A program made the translations under genes and the position numbers. From a virus (taxonomy: Duplodnaviria; Caudoviricetes): a stretch of DNA of 64,000 bases. Positions within the stretch are counted from its first letter, which is position 1. Every line of letters begins with the position of its first letter. The DNA lies in IMG/VR virus record IMGVR_UViG_3300025679_000005; one strand, 5' to 3'. A model generated the notes under the pieces. The model had not been told where the DNA came from, did not search any database, and was given only the letters and a program-made list of their open reading frames with translations. Of the stretch, positions 2,713 through 56,977 are shown one piece after another.

Positions 2713-4493
2713 TGCCATCACAATTTGATGCAAGCCAAGTTACCTCGGGACCTGGCAAAATTCACACGGATGTTGTCACGGCGGCTGCTGAGTTGTTTAC
2801 GTCTGGTGCTAGCGGTGGTGGTGGTGGCGTTACCCCAGATATTCTGGCACAGCTTCTGGCGGCTCCTAGCGTCACGGCCCCCATCGTGGCAAACGTCAGC
2901 ACAGGTGACGCTAGTTACACGATCGTAAATGGTACCTACGGCGTTTTCTGGACAGGAAGTAGTGGTAGCGAAAGCTTAAACGACCTCTTCAAGGTTGTGA
3001 ACTCTTCGGACGACACTGACGTGTTCAACCCGATCACGAACACCTATGTGAGCGTGGCGTCGCTGTCGATTGCAGTTGGAAGTGGGTTCTACAACAACCC
3101 CATCACATTGACTTTCAATACGTCAGTACCCGCTGGCGTCTCCTACAAGATATTCTTCAGCAAGCAGACGATTCTATCGGCTTTGCCCAAGGAATTGGCC
3201 AGCTTTCCTACGATTCGCAGGTCTGCTGAGAGAGTGCGTTTTCCAGAGAACATTCGTACGGGACTTGCCCCTACATCAGTGGCCAATCCTCTTGATATCG
3301 TGGCCAATCCCTATCCTGATCCATACATGGCTCAGTGGAAGTCCCTGCTCCGTGGGACGGCAGCGACGTATACGGCTCAGGCGTCTGGTTCGGCCGGTTT
3401 CGTCAACATAGGTCGCAAGAAGAACGTTCTTGATGCCAATGACGTGTCCTTCGCAGGACACCAGGCGTCCGCGTTCCTAGCGGTCTACGAGAAGGAGATC
3501 ACTTCAGGGACCTTGAATGGTCAGACGGTCTATACGAAGATCGACCCCTCGTTGGCGGCTACTGTGAACCCCACAGGTTCGGCTGATATGGTTCAGCTGA
3601 ATTCGGCAGACTACTTCCGTCTGACTAGTCCCAGCCACCTCACTGCCATTCGTTGTGGGGTGGACATGCTGGAAATCACCTTCGTCTCAGGGCTGAAGGA
3701 GGTCTTCATCATTGGGTCGCTGGATGCCACGGATGTGCATAGAGCGCGTCTTCTGACATTGGGTGGAGCTACGGCTAATTTCCCGACTACTCTCACCAAC
3801 GTCCACCTGAAATGGATTCGTACAGGGGCCTTCCTAGGTGGGGACAATGATGCGGGGACAGCTAACCCACACTACTACAAGGGCTTCAGTCATTTGGTTC
3901 AGGGTGCCATTACCACAAGTCCTGCGGCTGAACTAGCTCAAGAACCACCGTTCTTTTCGGCAGGTACTATAGACAATACCCGTGCGGATTTAAGCCGTGG
4001 CAACTGGAATATCAAGGCATTCACTTGGGGCGGTTATACCCAGACAGGCGCGGCCCCTGCGAACATAGGCCAACGTACTATCAATGGGGAACTCTGGGGG
4101 GATGGCTCGATCATAACCTTCGGTGGGCGAAACATTGGTCTCAAGAACAACCGAAGTGTCTTAAGTGTCATAAACAGCAACACTACTACGACATGGGACC
4201 CAACGGCCAACAGCATGATTGGGAACATTTTCGTTGGCACTACCTCCTGTGTTTGGACGATCGTAATGGCAGGATCTTACGTGCCATTCGAAGGCGACGA
4301 GATCACGGTAACAATCAATTACGGCGGCACTATAGGCTCGGACAGCGAACTCAGTACAGTGGCTTGGCCCAGTAACTTCCTTTTCTCTGGTTTTGATGCG
4401 AACACCCCTTCCCCTACGGGCACTACCTTGAAGTTTAACGGCACTTACTTCAATAGTAAATTCCTCATGACACGTACCGACTACCAACCCTAA
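2712..4493 (+). CDS. Putative tail fibre / receptor-binding protein
   Basis: 593 aa, G/S/T-rich and beta-prone; C-terminal GDEITVTINYGG...VAWPSNFLF resembles fibre tip domains; TAATG coupling. Confidence 0.5.
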   Translation: MPSQFDASQVTSGPGKIHTDVVTAAAELFTSGASGGGGGVTPDILAQLLAAPSVTAPIVANVSTGDASYTIVNGTYGVFWTGSSGSESLNDLFKVVNSSDDTDVFNPITNTYVSVASLSIAVGSGFYNNPITLTFNTSVPAGVSYKIFFSKQTILSALPKELASFPTIRRSAERVRFPENIRTGLAPTSVANPLDIVANPYPDPYMAQWKSLLRGTAATYTAQASGSAGFVNIGRKKNVLDANDVSFAGHQASAFLAVYEKEITSGTLNGQTVYTKIDPSLAATVNPTGSADMVQLNSADYFRLTSPSHLTAIRCGVDMLEITFVSGLKEVFIIGSLDATDVHRARLLTLGGATANFPTTLTNVHLKWIRTGAFLGGDNDAGTANPHYYKGFSHLVQGAITTSPAAELAQEPPFFSAGTIDNTRADLSRGNWNIKAFTWGGYTQTGAAPANIGQRTINGELWGDGSIITFGGRNIGLKNNRSVLSVINSNTTTTWDPTANSMIGNIFVGTTSCVWTIVMAGSYVPFEGDEITVTINYGGTIGSDSELSTVAWPSNFLFSGFDANTPSPTGTTLKFNGTYFNSKFLMTRTDYQP

Positions 4494-4507
4494 AGTGGGA
4501 GATATAG

Positions 4508-5152
4508 ATGGGAACTCTTTACCTGATTGACGGACACAATCCGACCCTCGCATCCTCTGCGATCAAGGACACCTATATCCTAACTAGCGGTTCCCGCGAA
4601 CTTAGAGGTAGTTTCCCCGTGAATCTTCCATTCGACGTGCCTTTGGAAGGCCCCACCCCTACGATTGTGAGCGGCTTGGTGACCCAGAAGTATGCGGGCC
4701 TTTTAAGCATGTACCCCGGGTACAGCCACATCCTCTATGATGAGCAGTTGGACGGCACGGGGTGGGACATGACCGCGATTGCAACCAATGGCACGGCCTG
4801 TACCGTTGGTTCTAGAAAAACCACCAAATTGATCAATGCTGGTAGCCTACCCATGCATTCTCTGGCCACGACCTTGGCCACGACCCCCACGAATTACATA
4901 CTTCGGTATGAGCTGTACAAGTACCAGGACAACGACACTGTAGGCGGCCCGTACCAGCGTTTATACTCAGAAACCACGGACATCGCGGCTCAGGTCACGG
5001 TCTATGCGTCCTTCAACGGCAACTTCCAGCTCGCGACCAACGGGGTAGCAGCGGCCATTGCTAGCTTAGACCAAGGCAATAGCTTCCAGCTTCGCTTCCA
5101 AAAGACCTCGACGAATCCGGTTTGGATAGGCTCCTGGGCTTTGATTTATTGA
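4508..5152 (+). CDS. Hypothetical virion protein
   Basis: 214-aa ORF inside the structural cluster with similar composition. Confidence 0.5.
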   Translation: MGTLYLIDGHNPTLASSAIKDTYILTSGSRELRGSFPVNLPFDVPLEGPTPTIVSGLVTQKYAGLLSMYPGYSHILYDEQLDGTGWDMTAIATNGTACTVGSRKTTKLINAGSLPMHSLATTLATTPTNYILRYELYKYQDNDTVGGPYQRLYSETTDIAAQVTVYASFNGNFQLATNGVAAAIASLDQGNSFQLRFQKTSTNPVWIGSWALIY

Positions 5153-5201: not shown

Positions 5202-8200
5202 GTGATGACTGATAATTTCGGGCCGAATGTTTCACGAGTTCTGAGCCCCGCGCAAGCCTCCTACAAGACTGTAGTGTTCCAGGCGGGGCGGCCTCCATTG
5301 GACAGCGAGATGTCCTTTGCGCAGCAGATTGCGGCAGAATGGGACCGTTTACACGTTCTGACTGGGACTCCGTCGGGCTGGCTCGATGATGCCATCAATC
5401 CTCAAGATTCGTATGTCACCAGCGTCAACTACTCCAACTGGTTCCAGTACGGCGACCAACAGGCTGGGGAACGCCAGTCCATCATGTGGGCTGTGGTCAA
5501 CGGTTGGATAGTGCCAGTCACGGGAACCCTGACAGGTGCTCCCCCGGGCTCTCCCAACGACTCGGACACTTGGAACCGAATTACCTTGCCCCCGCCCCCC
5601 GCCAACACAGGGGATGCTCGTATCGATTTCGCCTTTCTTGAGGTTTGGCAGGCTCGTGTGGCTCCGAATCCGTCGACCACGAACAAGCCCGCTTCCTCGG
5701 CCGTCTACCGGTACGGTAACGTCGAAGGTGGCGCTAGCTTCATTGCAGATGACATGCAGGACCCTCAAATAGGGTTTGAGACAAGCCAGCGGATTCAGCT
5801 CCAATATCGTATCCGCATAGCTTCGGGCTTAGTTGGTTTGGCCAGCTACCCAGACGGCTTCGACCCCTCAGTGGTCAAGGGTCAGGGCACAGCAACAACG
5901 CCTTCGAGCTACGTGTTCACGAATATGCGTACCGAGCTGGGCGACCCCGGTCTCTGGCGTGCTGGCGACGGCACCCAAAACTCTTTGGGGACTGTCGACG
6001 GGTATACCTATGCAATCCCTATTTGCGGCGTCTTCCGCCGTAACAGTGTGGGTTGGGCGGGGGACCCTAGCCAGAACCTCAACGGCGCCTTCAACCGTAA
6101 TCCACTGGCCGTGGACCGAACGGGATACAAGACTTTCGCACTGGCCCCGACGATTGTAGGCGGGATCACAGCTACCTCTACGAGCCTGACCCTTTCATCA
6201 GTCGTTAACCTCTCGATACCTCTGACTCCCGTGACCCCAGTTGCGATTCAGATTGGCGATGAGATCCTGTACTACTCAGTGATCACAGGCACGACTATGA
6301 CGCTCAGCGCTCGTGGCGCTTTCGGCTCCAAGGCTGAAGCCCACAAGACGGGTTCTACCATTAAGACCGTATCCGGTCGTCCGGACGGCCTATTTGCAGA
6401 CCAGGTTGCAAAGACGGACATTTTGGATCTCCGCCATGTCGTGAGTCCAAACGGCTTCGACTACGCAGCCCTTCTCAAGGGCAACCTCGACAAGCTCCTC
6501 CGGGGTCAGCTGCACTCGACTTGGAAGCGCTCCGGTGGCGGACCACAGGGCACCTTCGTGGCTTATCAGGACAAGGTGTCGGCTACGCCGGGTGCTCTGG
6601 GTGTCACCAAGCTCGATGCTCCGGACGGTATCCGGCAAATATTTGCAGAGCCCGCGTCTTTGCAGCCGGTCATCATCCCAATTTCGTCCCCTGCTTCAAC
6701 TAGTACATCCCCTCAAGCAATTGGCGGGACCCTGGGTGCGGCTTTCAACACTGGAGTCACAGCCATCCACCCTGCGGGCACAGGGTTCCAGCCTGGGGAT
6801 ATTATTACGATTTCACGGAGCCTATTCCTGAATTCGTTACCAGGCAGCGATTCGGATCAACTGCACCTACTGGCCGACAACACCTATTTCTCAATACGCT
6901 TCATGGGTGAGACAACAGATTGCTCGAACACGACATATTCGCTATCCAACGACGGATCGGGGAACCTACTCATCACGTTTGGAGGCGGCTTCACGGTTCG
7001 CAATCTAGGAGCTTTCATCACCTTGTATGTGCAGTATGGTGCCGGACGTGGCATGAGCCGAAAACCCGACGCCATCCACAGCGTGGCTTACCTCTCTGCT
7101 TCACCCAACATCTTGGTACAGCAGCAGGGGCTACCAGCTGGCAATCAGCCAATTCGTACAACATGGGCCGCCCTATGGTCTAAGTTCCAAGCTGGACCGT
7201 TCAACGGGCATCTTGCGTCGACTGCTGAGGCCTACGCGGATCCAGGCAGCAAGAGTGTTATCTTGACGCCGTTCCGTCGGCACACCTTCAGTGGGCCGAA
7301 TTTCAAGAGCACCCAGAAGTACGTGAATACCGGCAACCCCTCAGATGCCCAGTTCGGCGCTATGCCTGCTTATACTCCAGGGGGTTCTCCAAAGTGGACG
7401 ACAACGGACCCTCTAGGCGTGTTCTCTGGATACTCTGACCCGACGACAGCTAGGGCCAACATGTGCGTGATCCTACCCAGGCGCCTCATGCCAGGTTACG
7501 GTGAAGTCCGTGTTCCAATCTTGTACTCAGACTCGGGGAACTTCGCTGAAGGTATCAACTTCGCTTTCAGCGCTCCCAAGGGAGGCACTCCAGGTAATGA
7601 CTATACGAACTTTGTGCCTCCTACGGACGGCAGCGGCGCAGCAACCTACGGTGTGTTCTCGACGCTGAACCTCACCAACAGCACACCAGTCGCCTACAAT
7701 ACGGCGTACACAGACGGCCTCCTCATCGCTGGCATGAGGTTTTTCACAGATACACGGGGCTTGAACCGCCAGGGTCTAGAACTACCGCCATTCTACGGGA
7801 TTGCTCGCCTATTCGCTGTATACGAGGCTCAGGACTACAAGGCGCACGGCAGTGCTTACAACCCCACTACTCGCGCTTTCGTGGGTACGGGCGCAACAAA
7901 CCTACTTCGCCAGAACTTCTCTGGTCCGACCTTCTGGATTGAGTCCGATGTAGACGGCGACCCTACGTTCATCCTGAACGCAGACGCTATCGATATCACG
8001 AAGTCCCCGAATGCGATCTCCGCGTTCAACTCGGCCCATTATGTGATCGAGTCCTCGATCTTCGGCTGTGACCGTGGGGCGTTCGACTTGTCCCAGGATT
8101 GCCGCATTGTCCTCAGTCGTACTCGCAATGAGGGTACGACTGCTGGAGTCACAATGGCTACGAACCCCTCGTTCGTACTGCCGGGTGCTCCGGAAATCGG

Positions 8201-51783: not shown

Positions 51784-52632
51784 TCATGCCCTGGGTAAAA
51801 GCGACCACGTTTGAGGATTTTCGAGCTGGTGTGAGATCTGAGCGATGTCGGAAAGGCCCGCTAGGTAATCCACCTTCTCGTAGTCGATAGTGCGCTGAAC
51901 CAGAGGACTCAGGGATTCTTGGAAAGGGGTCATGATCGGTACTTTGAGACCGTGGACGAAGTCGTTGAAGGCGGCGTCATGCCAGGGTGGGGACCAGGCA
52001 CTTGACCGACAGATATACACCATCTCGACATTGCCCGCGTATTCCGACACCTTGGGATCAGGCCATACACACGGCTCTGTGTACCGCCTCAGGGAAGCAT
52101 CCAGTTCAGGGAAGCCCCCGTCTCCAAAGCTCCTAGTCCAATCGGCCATCCCCTTCCACGGGGGAAACACGATCAAAGACTTGAGCTGAAGCTGCGTCAG
52201 ATGGGTCATGAGCAGCCAGTTCTCACAGGTGACGTTGCCTCGAAGGGCGTCCCGCTCGAACTGGGCCATGTTGTAGGTCAGGTCGTGGTGAGCGTCAAAG
52301 TTCACCAGCCGGGTGTCAGCTAAGGACGGGCCCTCACAATTCGAACGGGAAAACACCTTGTTCCCGTGCTGATGACTGTCCCCTACAATTACCTCACAGA
52401 GATCATCGAACCGATAGCCCAGACCTCGAAGGGTTTTCCAGAAGTCTCGTGGGTGGGGGTCGTCTAACTTGGCTGACTCTTTGAGGTCGAGCCCCTGTGC
52501 TTTAGCTAAGGCCAGACGAACTTCCCATACAGAGCCGTAGTAGGTTTCAGTTTCTGCGTGAGCCCATTTCCACTCTTCTCGTTCAATAGCGAAGTAGTCC
52601 CAATCTATTGTTAGCCAGATATTTTTTCGCAC
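51784..52632 (-). CDS. UPF0489/arginase-fold-like protein
   Basis: LTIDWDYF, DSHQH, NFDAHHDL; likely GTG start at 52632 after GGAAG (the track start at 52716 lies in spacer 1). Confidence 0.55.
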   Translation of the reverse strand: MRKNIWLTIDWDYFAIEREEWKWAHAETETYYGSVWEVRLALAKAQGLDLKESAKLDDPHPRDFWKTLRGLGYRFDDLCEVIVGDSHQHGNKVFSRSNCEGPSLADTRLVNFDAHHDLTYNMAQFERDALRGNVTCENWLLMTHLTQLQLKSLIVFPPWKGMADWTRSFGDGGFPELDASLRRYTEPCVWPDPKVSEYAGNVEMVYICRSSAWSPPWHDAAFNDFVHGLKVPIMTPFQESLSPLVQRTIDYEKVDYLAGLSDIAQISHQLENPQTWSLLPRA

Positions 52633-52652: not shown

Positions 52653-52843
52653 GTGACCACTTGAAAGGGTTTCGTCTCCCTCTCTGACCCTTTTTGGGTC
52701 CGATTTTGATGGTCATTGGTTCTTACCTGGTGACCACTTGAAAGGGTTTCGTCTCCCTCTCTGACCTGTAAAAACGGGCGGCGTCACCAACACCCAGGTA
52801 TCGGTGGTGACCACTTGAAAGGGTTTCGTCTCCCTCTCTGACC
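52653..52843 (-). CRISPR. CRISPR mini-array: 3 identical 37-bp repeats and 2 spacers of 40 bp
   Basis: Repeats at 52653-52689, 52730-52766 and 52807-52843; minus-strand repeat GGTCAGAGAGGGAGACGAAACCCTTTCAAGTGGTCAC; spacers unrelated to each other; next to a RuvC effector. Confidence 0.93.
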
Positions 52844-53151
52844 TTACCCCTAGGCACCTCAAGCATTTCGCGACCTTGCACAATGCTTTGCGAGAGGTCG
52901 CGAAATCGACCCTTTTTGAGGGAGGGCGATTTGGCAATAAACGCCTGGCTCCATCAACGATGGAGCCTAATTTGGCTGTTGCGAGAGCCTGCTGGCTTTT
53001 TGGCGCCACCGAACCTCTCGCAACGAGGAAGACGAATTGTCAGAGAACAGAGTGAGAGAAGAAACCCTCTTAAGTGTGGTGGACTCAACCACCAAAGTTG
53101 GGAATACGTAGGTACTCTCACGAGCCCCACTCAGCTAACTTTCGTTAGCTG
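52844..53151 (-). ncRNA. Putative tracrRNA/scaffold and leader region (boundaries unknown)
   Basis: Anti-repeat at 53048-53076 (24/29 identity to the repeat); stems at 52865-52906, 52947-52967, 52978-53024, 53077-53094 and 53132-53151. Confidence 0.7.
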
Positions 53152-55084
53152 TCGTCCCTAGAGGAGCCACCGACACTGCGCCGCTATCGACACAGCCTTC
53201 CGGTTTGCCTTGCTTACGCTTGGCGCTCTTCCTATTGTGCTCAGGAGCTTTCGCTACTGAGTTTTGGGTCTGCTCTGCCCGAGCAGACCTTTCGGCCCAC
53301 GCTGTTTGGCGTATGGCCAGAAATTCTGGATTGTCAAAGTCCCGGAGATTCATAGCTGCGTTCGCATCTCGATGATTCTCTGGGAGGTGCCCCCTACGAG
53401 GCTCTCGAACGGATCCTACACCGAAGCCGCAGCTCTGGCATCGGAAATATTCGTTAGAACCCAACTTCCTGTTGAGGACCCCGCAGGCATGGCATTGCTG
53501 AGATGTGTATTGAGGCTCCTTGGCGTGGACTACCGCTCCTGCCCAGGTCGCCTTGTAGGTCAATTGCTGGCGAATTGCATAAGGTCCGATCTTGGCCCAC
53601 ATTTTGGCAAAGACCCGTCGCATGCGCTTGGATGCGTTCGAGCCAAGGTCTTGCTTCGCCATCATACCCTTGATGTCCAAGTCCTCGACATGGTAGGTGC
53701 TTGCGCCCTGATCAATCAGGCGTCGAGTGACCTGATGGCGTAGATCCCCCAACAGGTCCGTGATCTTGGAGTCAATGCGTCGGACTTGGCTCTCAACATC
53801 AAGGTAGCCGTTGGAGGGCTTTTGACGGATCGCTTTGCCTTTGGGGTCTAGGCGCACGCTGCCTTGATTGACGAGGACGATACCGTTCTTGTTCGCGGCT
53901 TCGACTGCGACTCGACCTTGTCTTCTGGAGAGTCTCCTCTGGAGGACAGCTTTTTTGCGTTCGAGCTTCTCGACCGTCTTCATAGCCTTCAGGTAGAATT
54001 CCTGAGCATAAATCTTGGCATTGGAGTCAACGACAAATGTCCGTTTGCCCAGGTCGATGCCTAAGGTCTCGCCAGTGCGAGGTTTTGGGTCCGGGGCATC
54101 GATCTCGACTGTCAGAGACAGGTACCAATGAGTCCCTCGTTTTTGGACGGCGACCTGAGTGTGGTTGACGTGATGAACCCCAATAGGGAAATACTTTGGA
54201 CGAGCCAATAGGATCCACTCGTGACCTTTTCCAAAGAACTTGCCAGCTCCTTGGATTTTGATCCGATCTCCCTGTATGGTAACTGTCGTAGACACTCGGA
54301 CAGCACCAGCCTCCGTCGTATAGGCTTCCTCTGGAATTATTGGGAAAGCCGTCACCTTCCCCAATTCCTTGAATGTTGGCTGATTCATCCGGAATTTAGG
54401 AGGGCTCTTCCCAGCCGCCTTGAACTTAGGGTACCCACTAGCTGGAACTCCTGGGGGCGGCTTTACCATGCGATCAAAAGCAAAGTCCACATCCGCGAGT
54501 GCCTCACGACTTACATAGGCAGTAGCTTGGTCCTTCAGGGGCGTTTTGCCGTACAGTGCTTGGGCATTCCTAGGGAATTTGACTATGGGGTCTTCGGCCC
54601 CAGGCTCCCATGCGTCTAGACCTAGGACTCGTGATGCCTGAGGTTGTAACTCCGAAAGATGCGATTCGAGCCATCGAATCGCATTGTTTGGGTTCACACC
54701 CTTGTACTTGTCACCGATCTTTAGGGAACCTTCGATACTGGGGGTTAGAAGGACATCCCCTAGCGGGCCGGAGAACTTCCAACCGCTAGCTTTCTGGCCC
54801 TCTTCTCGGAATTTCTCGTGCGTGTACCCAAGAGCTGTGAACAGAGCTTCGACATCGTAAATGGTTTGAGGGCGCTTGGCCTTTAGCTCTTTTGCGGACA
54901 GGTCCACCCACCCTCGGCGTAGTCCCAGTAGGTAGAGCTGCACCTTGTATGCCTTGTACTCCGCTGTCCTTACTGCGACACCGTGGTTATACGTTCGTCG
55001 AGTGACCCTGCACCAACGAGACAGTTCTTGTTCTTGCCTTGCTGTAGGGTAGATTCGACTTACGTAAGCTTTGTGGATCCTCAT
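53135..55084 (-). CDS. cas12: Compact type V CRISPR effector candidate (TnpB-derived RuvC nuclease, Cas12f/Cas14/V-U-like), 649 aa
   Basis: N-terminal YVSRIYPTARQEQEL; RuvC-I LGIDLG, RuvC-II YHVEDL, zinc finger CHAC...CQSC, RuvC-III HRDANAA; adjacent array and anti-repeat. Confidence 0.85.
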   Translation of the reverse strand: MRIHKAYVSRIYPTARQEQELSRWCRVTRRTYNHGVAVRTAEYKAYKVQLYLLGLRRGWVDLSAKELKAKRPQTIYDVEALFTALGYTHEKFREEGQKASGWKFSGPLGDVLLTPSIEGSLKIGDKYKGVNPNNAIRWLESHLSELQPQASRVLGLDAWEPGAEDPIVKFPRNAQALYGKTPLKDQATAYVSREALADVDFAFDRMVKPPPGVPASGYPKFKAAGKSPPKFRMNQPTFKELGKVTAFPIIPEEAYTTEAGAVRVSTTVTIQGDRIKIQGAGKFFGKGHEWILLARPKYFPIGVHHVNHTQVAVQKRGTHWYLSLTVEIDAPDPKPRTGETLGIDLGKRTFVVDSNAKIYAQEFYLKAMKTVEKLERKKAVLQRRLSRRQGRVAVEAANKNGIVLVNQGSVRLDPKGKAIRQKPSNGYLDVESQVRRIDSKITDLLGDLRHQVTRRLIDQGASTYHVEDLDIKGMMAKQDLGSNASKRMRRVFAKMWAKIGPYAIRQQLTYKATWAGAVVHAKEPQYTSQQCHACGVLNRKLGSNEYFRCQSCGFGVGSVREPRRGHLPENHRDANAAMNLRDFDNPEFLAIRQTAWAERSARAEQTQNSVAKAPEHNRKSAKRKQGKPEGCVDSGAVSVAPLGTTANES

Positions 55085-55449
55085 GATTTGATTGCTCGCT
55101 CCACTGCATCCAACAAGTCCGATTTGTGGGCTGGTTTGAACAAGACCTTGGCTTCTCCGATGTCTTGCAAAGCCGACATGACGGCTATAGGGGACCCTGT
55201 GTTGAATACGAAGCGCTTAGCCATCTTGGGCTTTGCTTTGATAGCAGCCTGCATGAGGGCGGGGCCGGACAGAACCGGCATCTCGCCGTCAGAGACCACA
55301 CAATCGTAGTCCTTCGCCAGGAGCCCCTTCAGGGCCTTCTCGCTGTCGATGTAGGTGTCCACATCGTAACCCGAAAGACGCAGAGTCCTGGACAGGGCCT
55401 CAGCCACTTCCGGACTGTCGTCTACGACTAGTACCTTTTTCATCGCCAT
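55081..55449 (-). CDS. Single-domain response regulator (CheY-like receiver)
   Basis: VLVVDD, phospho-acceptor SDGEMP, T (NTG), KP. Confidence 0.9.
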   Translation of the reverse strand: MAMKKVLVVDDSPEVAEALSRTLRLSGYDVDTYIDSEKALKGLLAKDYDCVVSDGEMPVLSGPALMQAAIKAKPKMAKRFVFNTGSPIAVMSALQDIGEAKVLFKPAHKSDLLDAVERAIKS

Positions 55450-56136: not shown

Positions 56137-56376
56137 CTACAGGTCGAAGTCTGACAGGCGTTCCCAAAATGACTTTGAGCCATAGGGATCTCTATCTTGT
56201 TTTTTACGGCAGGCCTGACAGATAGCGCCCGCTACCCTACCGGCTCTGCCAATCTCACTGCACCTAATCGCACAAGGGATCTTCTTCGAGATCGTAATCA
56301 ATTCCGATACAGTCAATGAATTGGGGTCTAGGGTCCTCTCAGTCAGATACCTAGTAACCCATTCCTCTGCTGTCAT
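56137..56376 (-). CDS. Small hypothetical protein (MTAEEW...)
   Basis: ATGA overlap with the stop of 56373..56642; Cys cluster. Confidence 0.55.
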   Translation of the reverse strand: MTAEEWVTRYLTERTLDPNSLTVSELITISKKIPCAIRCSEIGRAGRVAGAICQACRKKQDRDPYGSKSFWERLSDFDL

Positions 56377-56642
56377 CGCCGGCTCCGGCTCCCGCTCACG
56401 CTCCGGCTCCCGCTCACGCTCCAGCTCACGCTCCGGCTCACGCTCCGGCTCCGGCTCCCGCTCACGCTCCAGCTCCGGCTCCGGCTCCGGCTCCGGCTCC
56501 CGCTCCGGCTCCAGTTCCAGCTCCAGTTCCCGCTCCGGCTCCCGCTCCGGCTCCCGCTCACGCTCACGCTCCAGCTCCGGCTCCGGCTCCGGCTCCCGCT
56601 CCCGCTCACCAGGTATGCCTCGAACATTAAACAAGGGTTCAT
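56373..56642 (-). CDS. Ser-X dipeptide-repeat (SR/SG/SW/SV) low-complexity protein
   Basis: ATGA overlaps at both ends identify this frame rather than the EPER frame. Confidence 0.6.
   Translation of the reverse strand: MNPCLMFEAYLVSGSGSRSRSRSWSVSVSGSRSGSRSGNWSWNWSRSGSRSRSRSRSWSVSGSRSRSVSRSVSWSVSGSRSVSGSRSRR
56379..56608. repeat. Hexanucleotide tandem repeat (about 38 units)
   Basis: Minus-strand units AGCCGG/AGCGGG/AGCTGG/AGCGTG/AACTGG. Confidence 0.9.
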
Positions 56643-56977
56643 ATCTGCTCCCTAGGCAATTCATGAGGCCATTTCACATGATCCAAAAATGTGCTCCGAT
56701 TGAGGGTTACTTTCACCCCATCTGGGAATGGCTCGACTTCATCGAAGACCCCTGTTTTAAGCAGGTCTGCGAAGCGGCCGTCAGAAGCAATCCAAGCGGC
56801 CTCGTCCAACTCTAACTCTTCTTCGGACACTGCTGTCACTCTACCTGTATAGTGTGCTGTGATAGTTCTAACGAAGATTTTCGTCCCAATTTCAATTGGT
56901 AGTCGACGTGAGGTGTTCATCCCAAATAGTAGGGCTATCTCGCGCAATTGTTCTAAAGTCAGATTTTGAATTTCCAT
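56639..56977 (-). CDS. Small beta-rich (Sm/SH3-like) phage protein
   Basis: IGTKIFVRTITAHYTGRV...LDEAAWIASDGRF. Confidence 0.55.
   Translation of the reverse strand: MEIQNLTLEQLREIALLFGMNTSRRLPIEIGTKIFVRTITAHYTGRVTAVSEEELELDEAAWIASDGRFADLLKTGVFDEVEPFPDGVKVTLNRSTFLDHVKWPHELPREQI

Follow-up and report, generated by a model that had tools for sequence, protein, structure and literature searches.

The two 40-nt stretches that separate three repeats in the window (the whole 64,000-nt stretch of viral DNA analysed here) are genuine CRISPR spacers. Very probably, they are the guides of a working mini-CRISPR array that serves the nuclease encoded next to it, a TnpB-derived type V enzyme apparently closest to V-U4/Cas12n, in a ~464-kb phage from peat. 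This reading is based on the geometry of the array, the uniqueness of the spacers, the intact D-E-D triad and zinc ribbon of the nuclease, an anti-repeat that co-varies with the repeat, a conserved leader and the presence of an identical locus in an independent assembly. The components of the locus, listed by window coordinates, are the following:

51784..52632, minus strand: next gene, 282 aa, an ENA gene call with a GTG start at 52632; no Pfam or NCBIfam match
52653-52689, minus strand: repeat 1, at the trailer end; identical to repeats 2 and 3
52690-52729, minus strand: spacer 1, trailer-proximal; 40 nt, 42.5% GC
52730-52766, minus strand: repeat 2, 37 nt; identical to repeats 1 and 3
52767-52806, minus strand: spacer 2, leader-proximal; 40 nt, 57.5% GC
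52807-52843, minus strand: repeat 3, leader-proximal; identical to repeats 1 and 2
52844..53037, minus strand: leader, between the anti-repeat and the first repeat
52887..52896, minus strand: leader motif CTCTCGCAAA, whose core TCTCGCA starts 52 nt before the first repeat
53038..53077, minus strand: anti-repeat, 40 nt, the 3′ part of the predicted tracrRNA; pairs with 29 of the first 33 repeat bases
53135..55084, minus strand: effector P0001, 649 aa, TnpB-derived type V, with RuvC residues D344/E467/D573 and a zinc ribbon

CRISPR arrays are characterized by at least three near-identical direct repeats of 23–50 nt, with a regular period and unique spacers of similar length. In the window, three direct repeats of 37 nt (100% identical) recur with a period of 77 and frame two unrelated 40-nt spacers, a trio for which shuffled sequences give a chance expectation of 0. 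A motif-bearing leader lies on one side, and the end of the effector gene is found 291 nt from the first repeat. The initial annotation had given the spacer sequences and their coordinates exactly, and each string is present only once, at its own position. Nor are the spacers degenerate copies of each other or of local sequence, an outcome which that annotation had regarded as fatal to its proposal: their mutual identity is 8/40 and 10/40 in the two orientations, which is inside the shuffle range and thus at chance level, while the best match of either in the record is 24/40. Given its leader-proximal place, spacer 2 is presumably the newer of the two. It contains a weak terminator-like hairpin with a T-run (52780-52794, minus strand) in the crRNA orientation; terminator-like sites in the region number 4 as against 1.6 ± 1.7 expected, which is not significant. 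The end of an IS element was also considered for the array and rejected, as the region shows no sign of such an element.

In type V systems, one effector protein carries a split RuvC domain (D, E, D) into which a zinc-ribbon/TNB domain is inserted. The nuclease to which the array belongs, a neighboring TnpB-family protein of 649 aa, displays this organization with matches to the Pfam domains HTH_OrfB_IS605, OrfB_IS605 and Cas12f1-like_TNB and to the NCBIfam model guided_TnpB (2e-51, 175 bits). In nine family members D344, E467, D573 and the cysteines of the zinc ribbon are all retained, which makes DNA cutting a likely function of the protein. Its best CRISPR profile is PADLOC Cas12u4 (2e-38, residues 3-624; a profile of 488 positions), with the Cas12f models near behind (1e-36, PADLOC), and no Cas12 subtype profile gives it as high a score as the general TnpB profile does. 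Among solved structures, those of TnpB and Cas12f come closest, at around 1e-9. On these profile matches we tentatively place the effector closest to V-U4/Cas12n. It is a singleton at 90% identity among 5.8 billion clusters, and an exhaustive HMMER search of 1.84 billion representatives recovered only 7 relatives below E 1e-30; no loci related to it were found in IMG/VR. A 122-aa receiver-domain (Response_reg) gene (window 55081-55449, minus strand) runs 4 nt into the start of the effector gene before it ends, an overlap that suggests co-translation. In the locus coding for the closest relative of the window effector (L006), a NUDIX gene takes its place, and so the pairing is not conserved.

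In the window, the anti-repeat lies 58–97 nt past the effector stop, and in the relative L009 it falls within the ORF; the tracrRNA probably begins at the very end of the effector gene or within its terminal part. The duplex of repeat and anti-repeat has a ΔG of −41.2 kcal/mol as compared to a mean of −28.4 for shuffled repeats. Cognate anti-repeats are found at the same place in L006, L007, L009 and L011, even as the repeats differ between the loci. At each locus the resident repeat and anti-repeat pair over nearly their full length (−31 to −46 kcal/mol), whereas cross-locus pairings are mostly much weaker, the exception being the GC-rich repeat of L011, which comes to about the cognate strength in L006. 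The placement of an anti-repeat at or overlapping the 3′ end of the effector, a hallmark of Cas12n, is thus seen here and is accompanied by co-variation with the repeat in five loci. This covariation fixes the orientation of the array, with the guides predicted to be read on the minus strand and spacer 2 in the leader-proximal position. Such settled guide orientation and boundaries are a prerequisite for any PAM assay.

We propose that the array would be transcribed on the minus strand from the leader, with each repeat pairing with the anti-repeat of the tracrRNA. Processing would then release a crRNA whose 5′ handle stems from the repeat and whose guide comprises the first ~20 nt, or a longer stretch, of a spacer, and the nuclease–RNA complex might cut guide-matching DNA beside a 5′ PAM. 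By analogy with other huge phages, the targets would most likely be rival phages or further mobile elements that share the host.

The relatives of the effector offer a view of how such arrays vary. The order of gene, anti-repeat, leader and array seen in the window recurs in L006, L007, L009 and L011, where the arrays have one, one, at least three and about nine spacers, respectively. In L008 the array (at least three repeats, with the contig beginning inside it) is located on the other side of the gene, while L010 and L014-L017 have no array within the DNA examined around the gene. No spacer is shared between the loci of the relatives or with the window, and none of the relatives' spacers matches the window's record or another locus. 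Hence, the guides are variable cargo rather than one hard-wired conserved guide. A tRNA-Ser(TGA) gene (L007 2761-2847) is found 21 nt past the last repeat of the one-spacer array of that locus. In the aquatic relative L011, with ~10 repeats, the repeats on the trailer side have point changes, and the final two spacers measure just 27 and 20 nt (4436-4663); this side is a decaying array end.

The leaders of four of these loci are dissimilar other than for a motif that mostly takes the form TCTCGCAAA. Its core TCTCGCA has its start 52, 53, 52 and 52 nt ahead of the first repeat for the window, L006, L007 and L011, respectively (at 5849, 2572 and 3950 in the three relatives, whose effectors are 28–47% identical to that of the window), and 8–9 nt after the TCTCGCA(AA) motif there is a (G/C)(T/C)AAG. 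The window leader additionally contains an imperfect 19-bp hairpin (52865-52906); no sigma-70-like promoter was recognised in it, and it shows no match to GenBank phages. Two roles are conceivable for the motif, namely that of a promoter element or that of a site at which a trans-supplied spacer integrase would dock. To our knowledge, a leader motif at a fixed distance has not been described for Cas12n. As there are no Cas1, Cas2 or Cas4 genes nearby, the array was probably loaded in trans, either through a host integrase that docks at this conserved leader or through recombination. In a broader and rather doubtful version of this proposal, adaptation-less phage arrays might in general be loaded in trans by one conserved integrase, coming from the host or still unrecognised. 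It is prompted by the occurrence of TCTCGCAAA at a fixed 52–53 nt in four distant members and by a constant first-position C in the window and two closer relatives. If true, such trans-loading would explain how huge phages without Cas1/Cas2 keep gaining guides; the fixed-distance motif itself makes the origin of spacers in such arrays a testable question.

The first-position C concerns the boundary between repeat and spacer. On the minus strand, a C comes directly after repeats 3 and 2 and a G after the last one, just as the initial annotation had read them. The repeats, taken in crRNA orientation, close with ...GTCAC; across the window, L006 and L008, all five internal repeats have a C immediately thereafter, but the base at this position varies in L007, L009 and L011. 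Accordingly, the 38-nt repeat unit with 39-nt spacers suggested by that annotation holds up as a plausible one for the window's sub-clade, to judge from these few repeats. Alternatively, the acquisition process may fix the first base of the spacer. In type I-E of E. coli the first spacer base is PAM-derived, and by analogy the same may apply here.

Spacer 1 had also been noted to read like a gene start on the minus strand. Its ATG does open a 310-codon frame (52716 to 51784, minus strand), the longest ORF there, but it is not a local gene start: the true one is the GTG at 52632, which lies 20 nt past the last repeat and has an AAGGAAG ribosome-binding site 7 nt upstream. This dedicated start, its ribosome-binding site and the ENA call led us to reject the array as a coding part of the 310-codon ORF. 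Moreover, the extension would be encoded by a spacer along with a repeat that recurs identically twice more, which marks it as an artefact. The 282-aa gene is not found as a conserved neighbor beside the arrays of the relatives and lies outside the CRISPR system.

The IMG/VR record containing the window is 82,836 bp long and 17% complete by CheckV. The locus is 100% identical over 21,950 bp to an independent ENA metagenome contig of 464,302 bp (ERZ27294387, k141_731965), indicating that the carrier is a huge phage of ~464 kb from peat. The only public run found with the locus is a DNA run from a peat metagenome of 2016, with no RNA run listed. In this run, the repeat-internal unitig (window 52736-52844) has a depth of 505 as compared to 88–95 for the flanking phage contigs (~5.3×), and two further contigs of phage-like depth, of 7,863 bp and 57 nt, enter the repeat from other sequence. 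Together, these imply that about two further copies of the repeat are present, probably as a second mini-array elsewhere in the ~464-kb genome. The Logan contigs of the run cover neither spacer, a gap that carries no evidential weight. The whole repeat has no exact match in IMG/VR, and neither does its last 24-mer in the JGI metagenome contigs.

Profiles for Cas1, Cas2 and Cas4 (PF01867, PF09827 and PF01930), which detected these proteins in control genomes, returned none in the 82.8-kb record, which thus codes for no Cas1-Cas2 module with or without Cas4. The gene tables of the relatives' loci likewise have none, bearing out the absence of an adaptation module remarked upon earlier. Almost all CRISPR systems of huge phages are without Cas1, Cas2 and Cas4 and have compact arrays (PMC7162821); against this published pattern the missing adaptation genes are to be expected and are not surprising.

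We searched for targets of the two spacers in several collections. Neither shows a near match on either strand of the 82,836-bp record (best 24/40), extending to the whole record the initial annotation's finding of no full match in the window; this search reached 82.8 kb of the ~464 kb, namely 40 kb on one side of the array and 18 kb on the other. In IMG/VR there is no exact match to the 5′ and 3′ 22-mers of spacer 1 or to the 5′ 22-mer and 3′ 21-mer of spacer 2, the 5′ 22-mer of spacer 2 is absent from the JGI metagenome contigs, and the 5′ 22-mers of both spacers are absent from the GTDB genomes (one for each of 185,579 prokaryote species). These scans call for exact 21–24-mers, and records neighboring the window's own genome may be missing from them. 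One spacer each of L006 and L011 also had no exact match in IMG/VR. When the whole array was searched by blastn, GenBank phages and PLSDB plasmids gave only chance matches (E ≥ 2). Six-frame peptides of the spacers yielded, in the record and all the relatives' loci, a single 7-residue run, which at 20/40 DNA identity and with stop codons nearby was dismissed as chance. As no protospacer was found in the collections searched, neither the PAM nor the host could be derived. This is the usual outcome for phage CRISPR guides, and the spacers are one more case for the published rule that huge-phage CRISPR systems are small, without adaptation genes and with mostly unmatched guides. Known targets would name the competitors or the host of this huge phage and reveal the PAM of a nuclease family that is compact, tracrRNA-dependent and very rare.

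Two other explanations of the spacers were weighed. It is conceivable, albeit improbable, that they match the phage's own genome or a host gene and serve as a gene switch, or are tolerated self-captures, as opposed to weapons against rivals. Published huge-phage spacers do include ones against host transcription and translation genes (PMC7162821), and the self-match search covered only 82.8 kb of the ~464 kb. However, within the 40 kb and 18 kb on either side of the array nothing exceeds 24/40, and no exact 5′ 22-mer of either spacer is seen in the 185,579 species genomes. The intact RuvC triad also weighs against self-targeting, since a perfect self-match with a PAM is expected to be lethal to the phage.

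Less probable still is that the spacers are parts, with no current target, of an inert relic of a captured CRISPR locus, or of a repeat mimic that sequesters a Cas protein of the host. While the presence of only two spacers, the lack of a target in any collection searched and the failure to find adaptation genes would agree with either, the three repeats are identical, the anti-repeat and the catalytic residues show no damage and co-vary within the family, and the locus is identical in independent assemblies. A decoy would, moreover, need no effector or tracrRNA of its own; since a cognate effector and anti-repeat adjoin the array, it is not a solitary repeat decoy. We favor a working array that arms the adjacent nuclease, with the counter-point that identical repeats and only two spacers leave active acquisition putative.

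Some viruses carry mini-CRISPR arrays with a role in inter-virus conflict, most of which borrow the effector of the host. The window array resembles these in having one or two spacers, in its viral location and in lacking adaptation genes, but differs in that it adjoins its own effector and tracrRNA. Among the type V systems, Cas12n recognizes a 5′-AAN PAM. The window system is similar to V-U4/V-N (Cas12n, C2c9) in its small TnpB-like RuvC effector with Cas12u4 as its best CRISPR profile (2e-38) and in the absence of adaptation genes next to the array. A further likeness is the tracrRNA at or overlapping the 3′ end of the effector ORF, that of Cas12n overlapping its ORF (PMC12216341). On the other hand, the 649-aa protein exceeds the 488-position Cas12u4 profile and scores better against general TnpB (175 bits), has 7 relatives below E 1e-30 and no cluster mates at 90% identity, and belongs to a phage-carried system whose leader has a fixed-distance motif.

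The systems of huge phages (V-U/Cas14-like and CasPhi; Al-Shayeb et al. 2020, PMC7162821) offer a further parallel, being likewise phage-borne, compact, devoid of Cas1/Cas2/Cas4 and with catalytic residues kept. The window array differs in having two spacers as against a published median of six repeats, and in that some spacers of those systems match other phages or host genes (PMC7162821), whereas none was found for the window spacers. CasPhi additionally needs no tracrRNA, while the window effector comes with a tracrRNA anti-repeat. The window system is a new and rare example of the already known huge-phage CRISPR systems without adaptation genes; the new points here are the leader motif at a fixed distance and the extra copies of the repeat elsewhere in the phage. 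Elsewhere in the window, ~37 tandem copies of the hexamer GCTCCC (56379-56609) are found inside a 175-codon minus-strand ORF (56137-56664).
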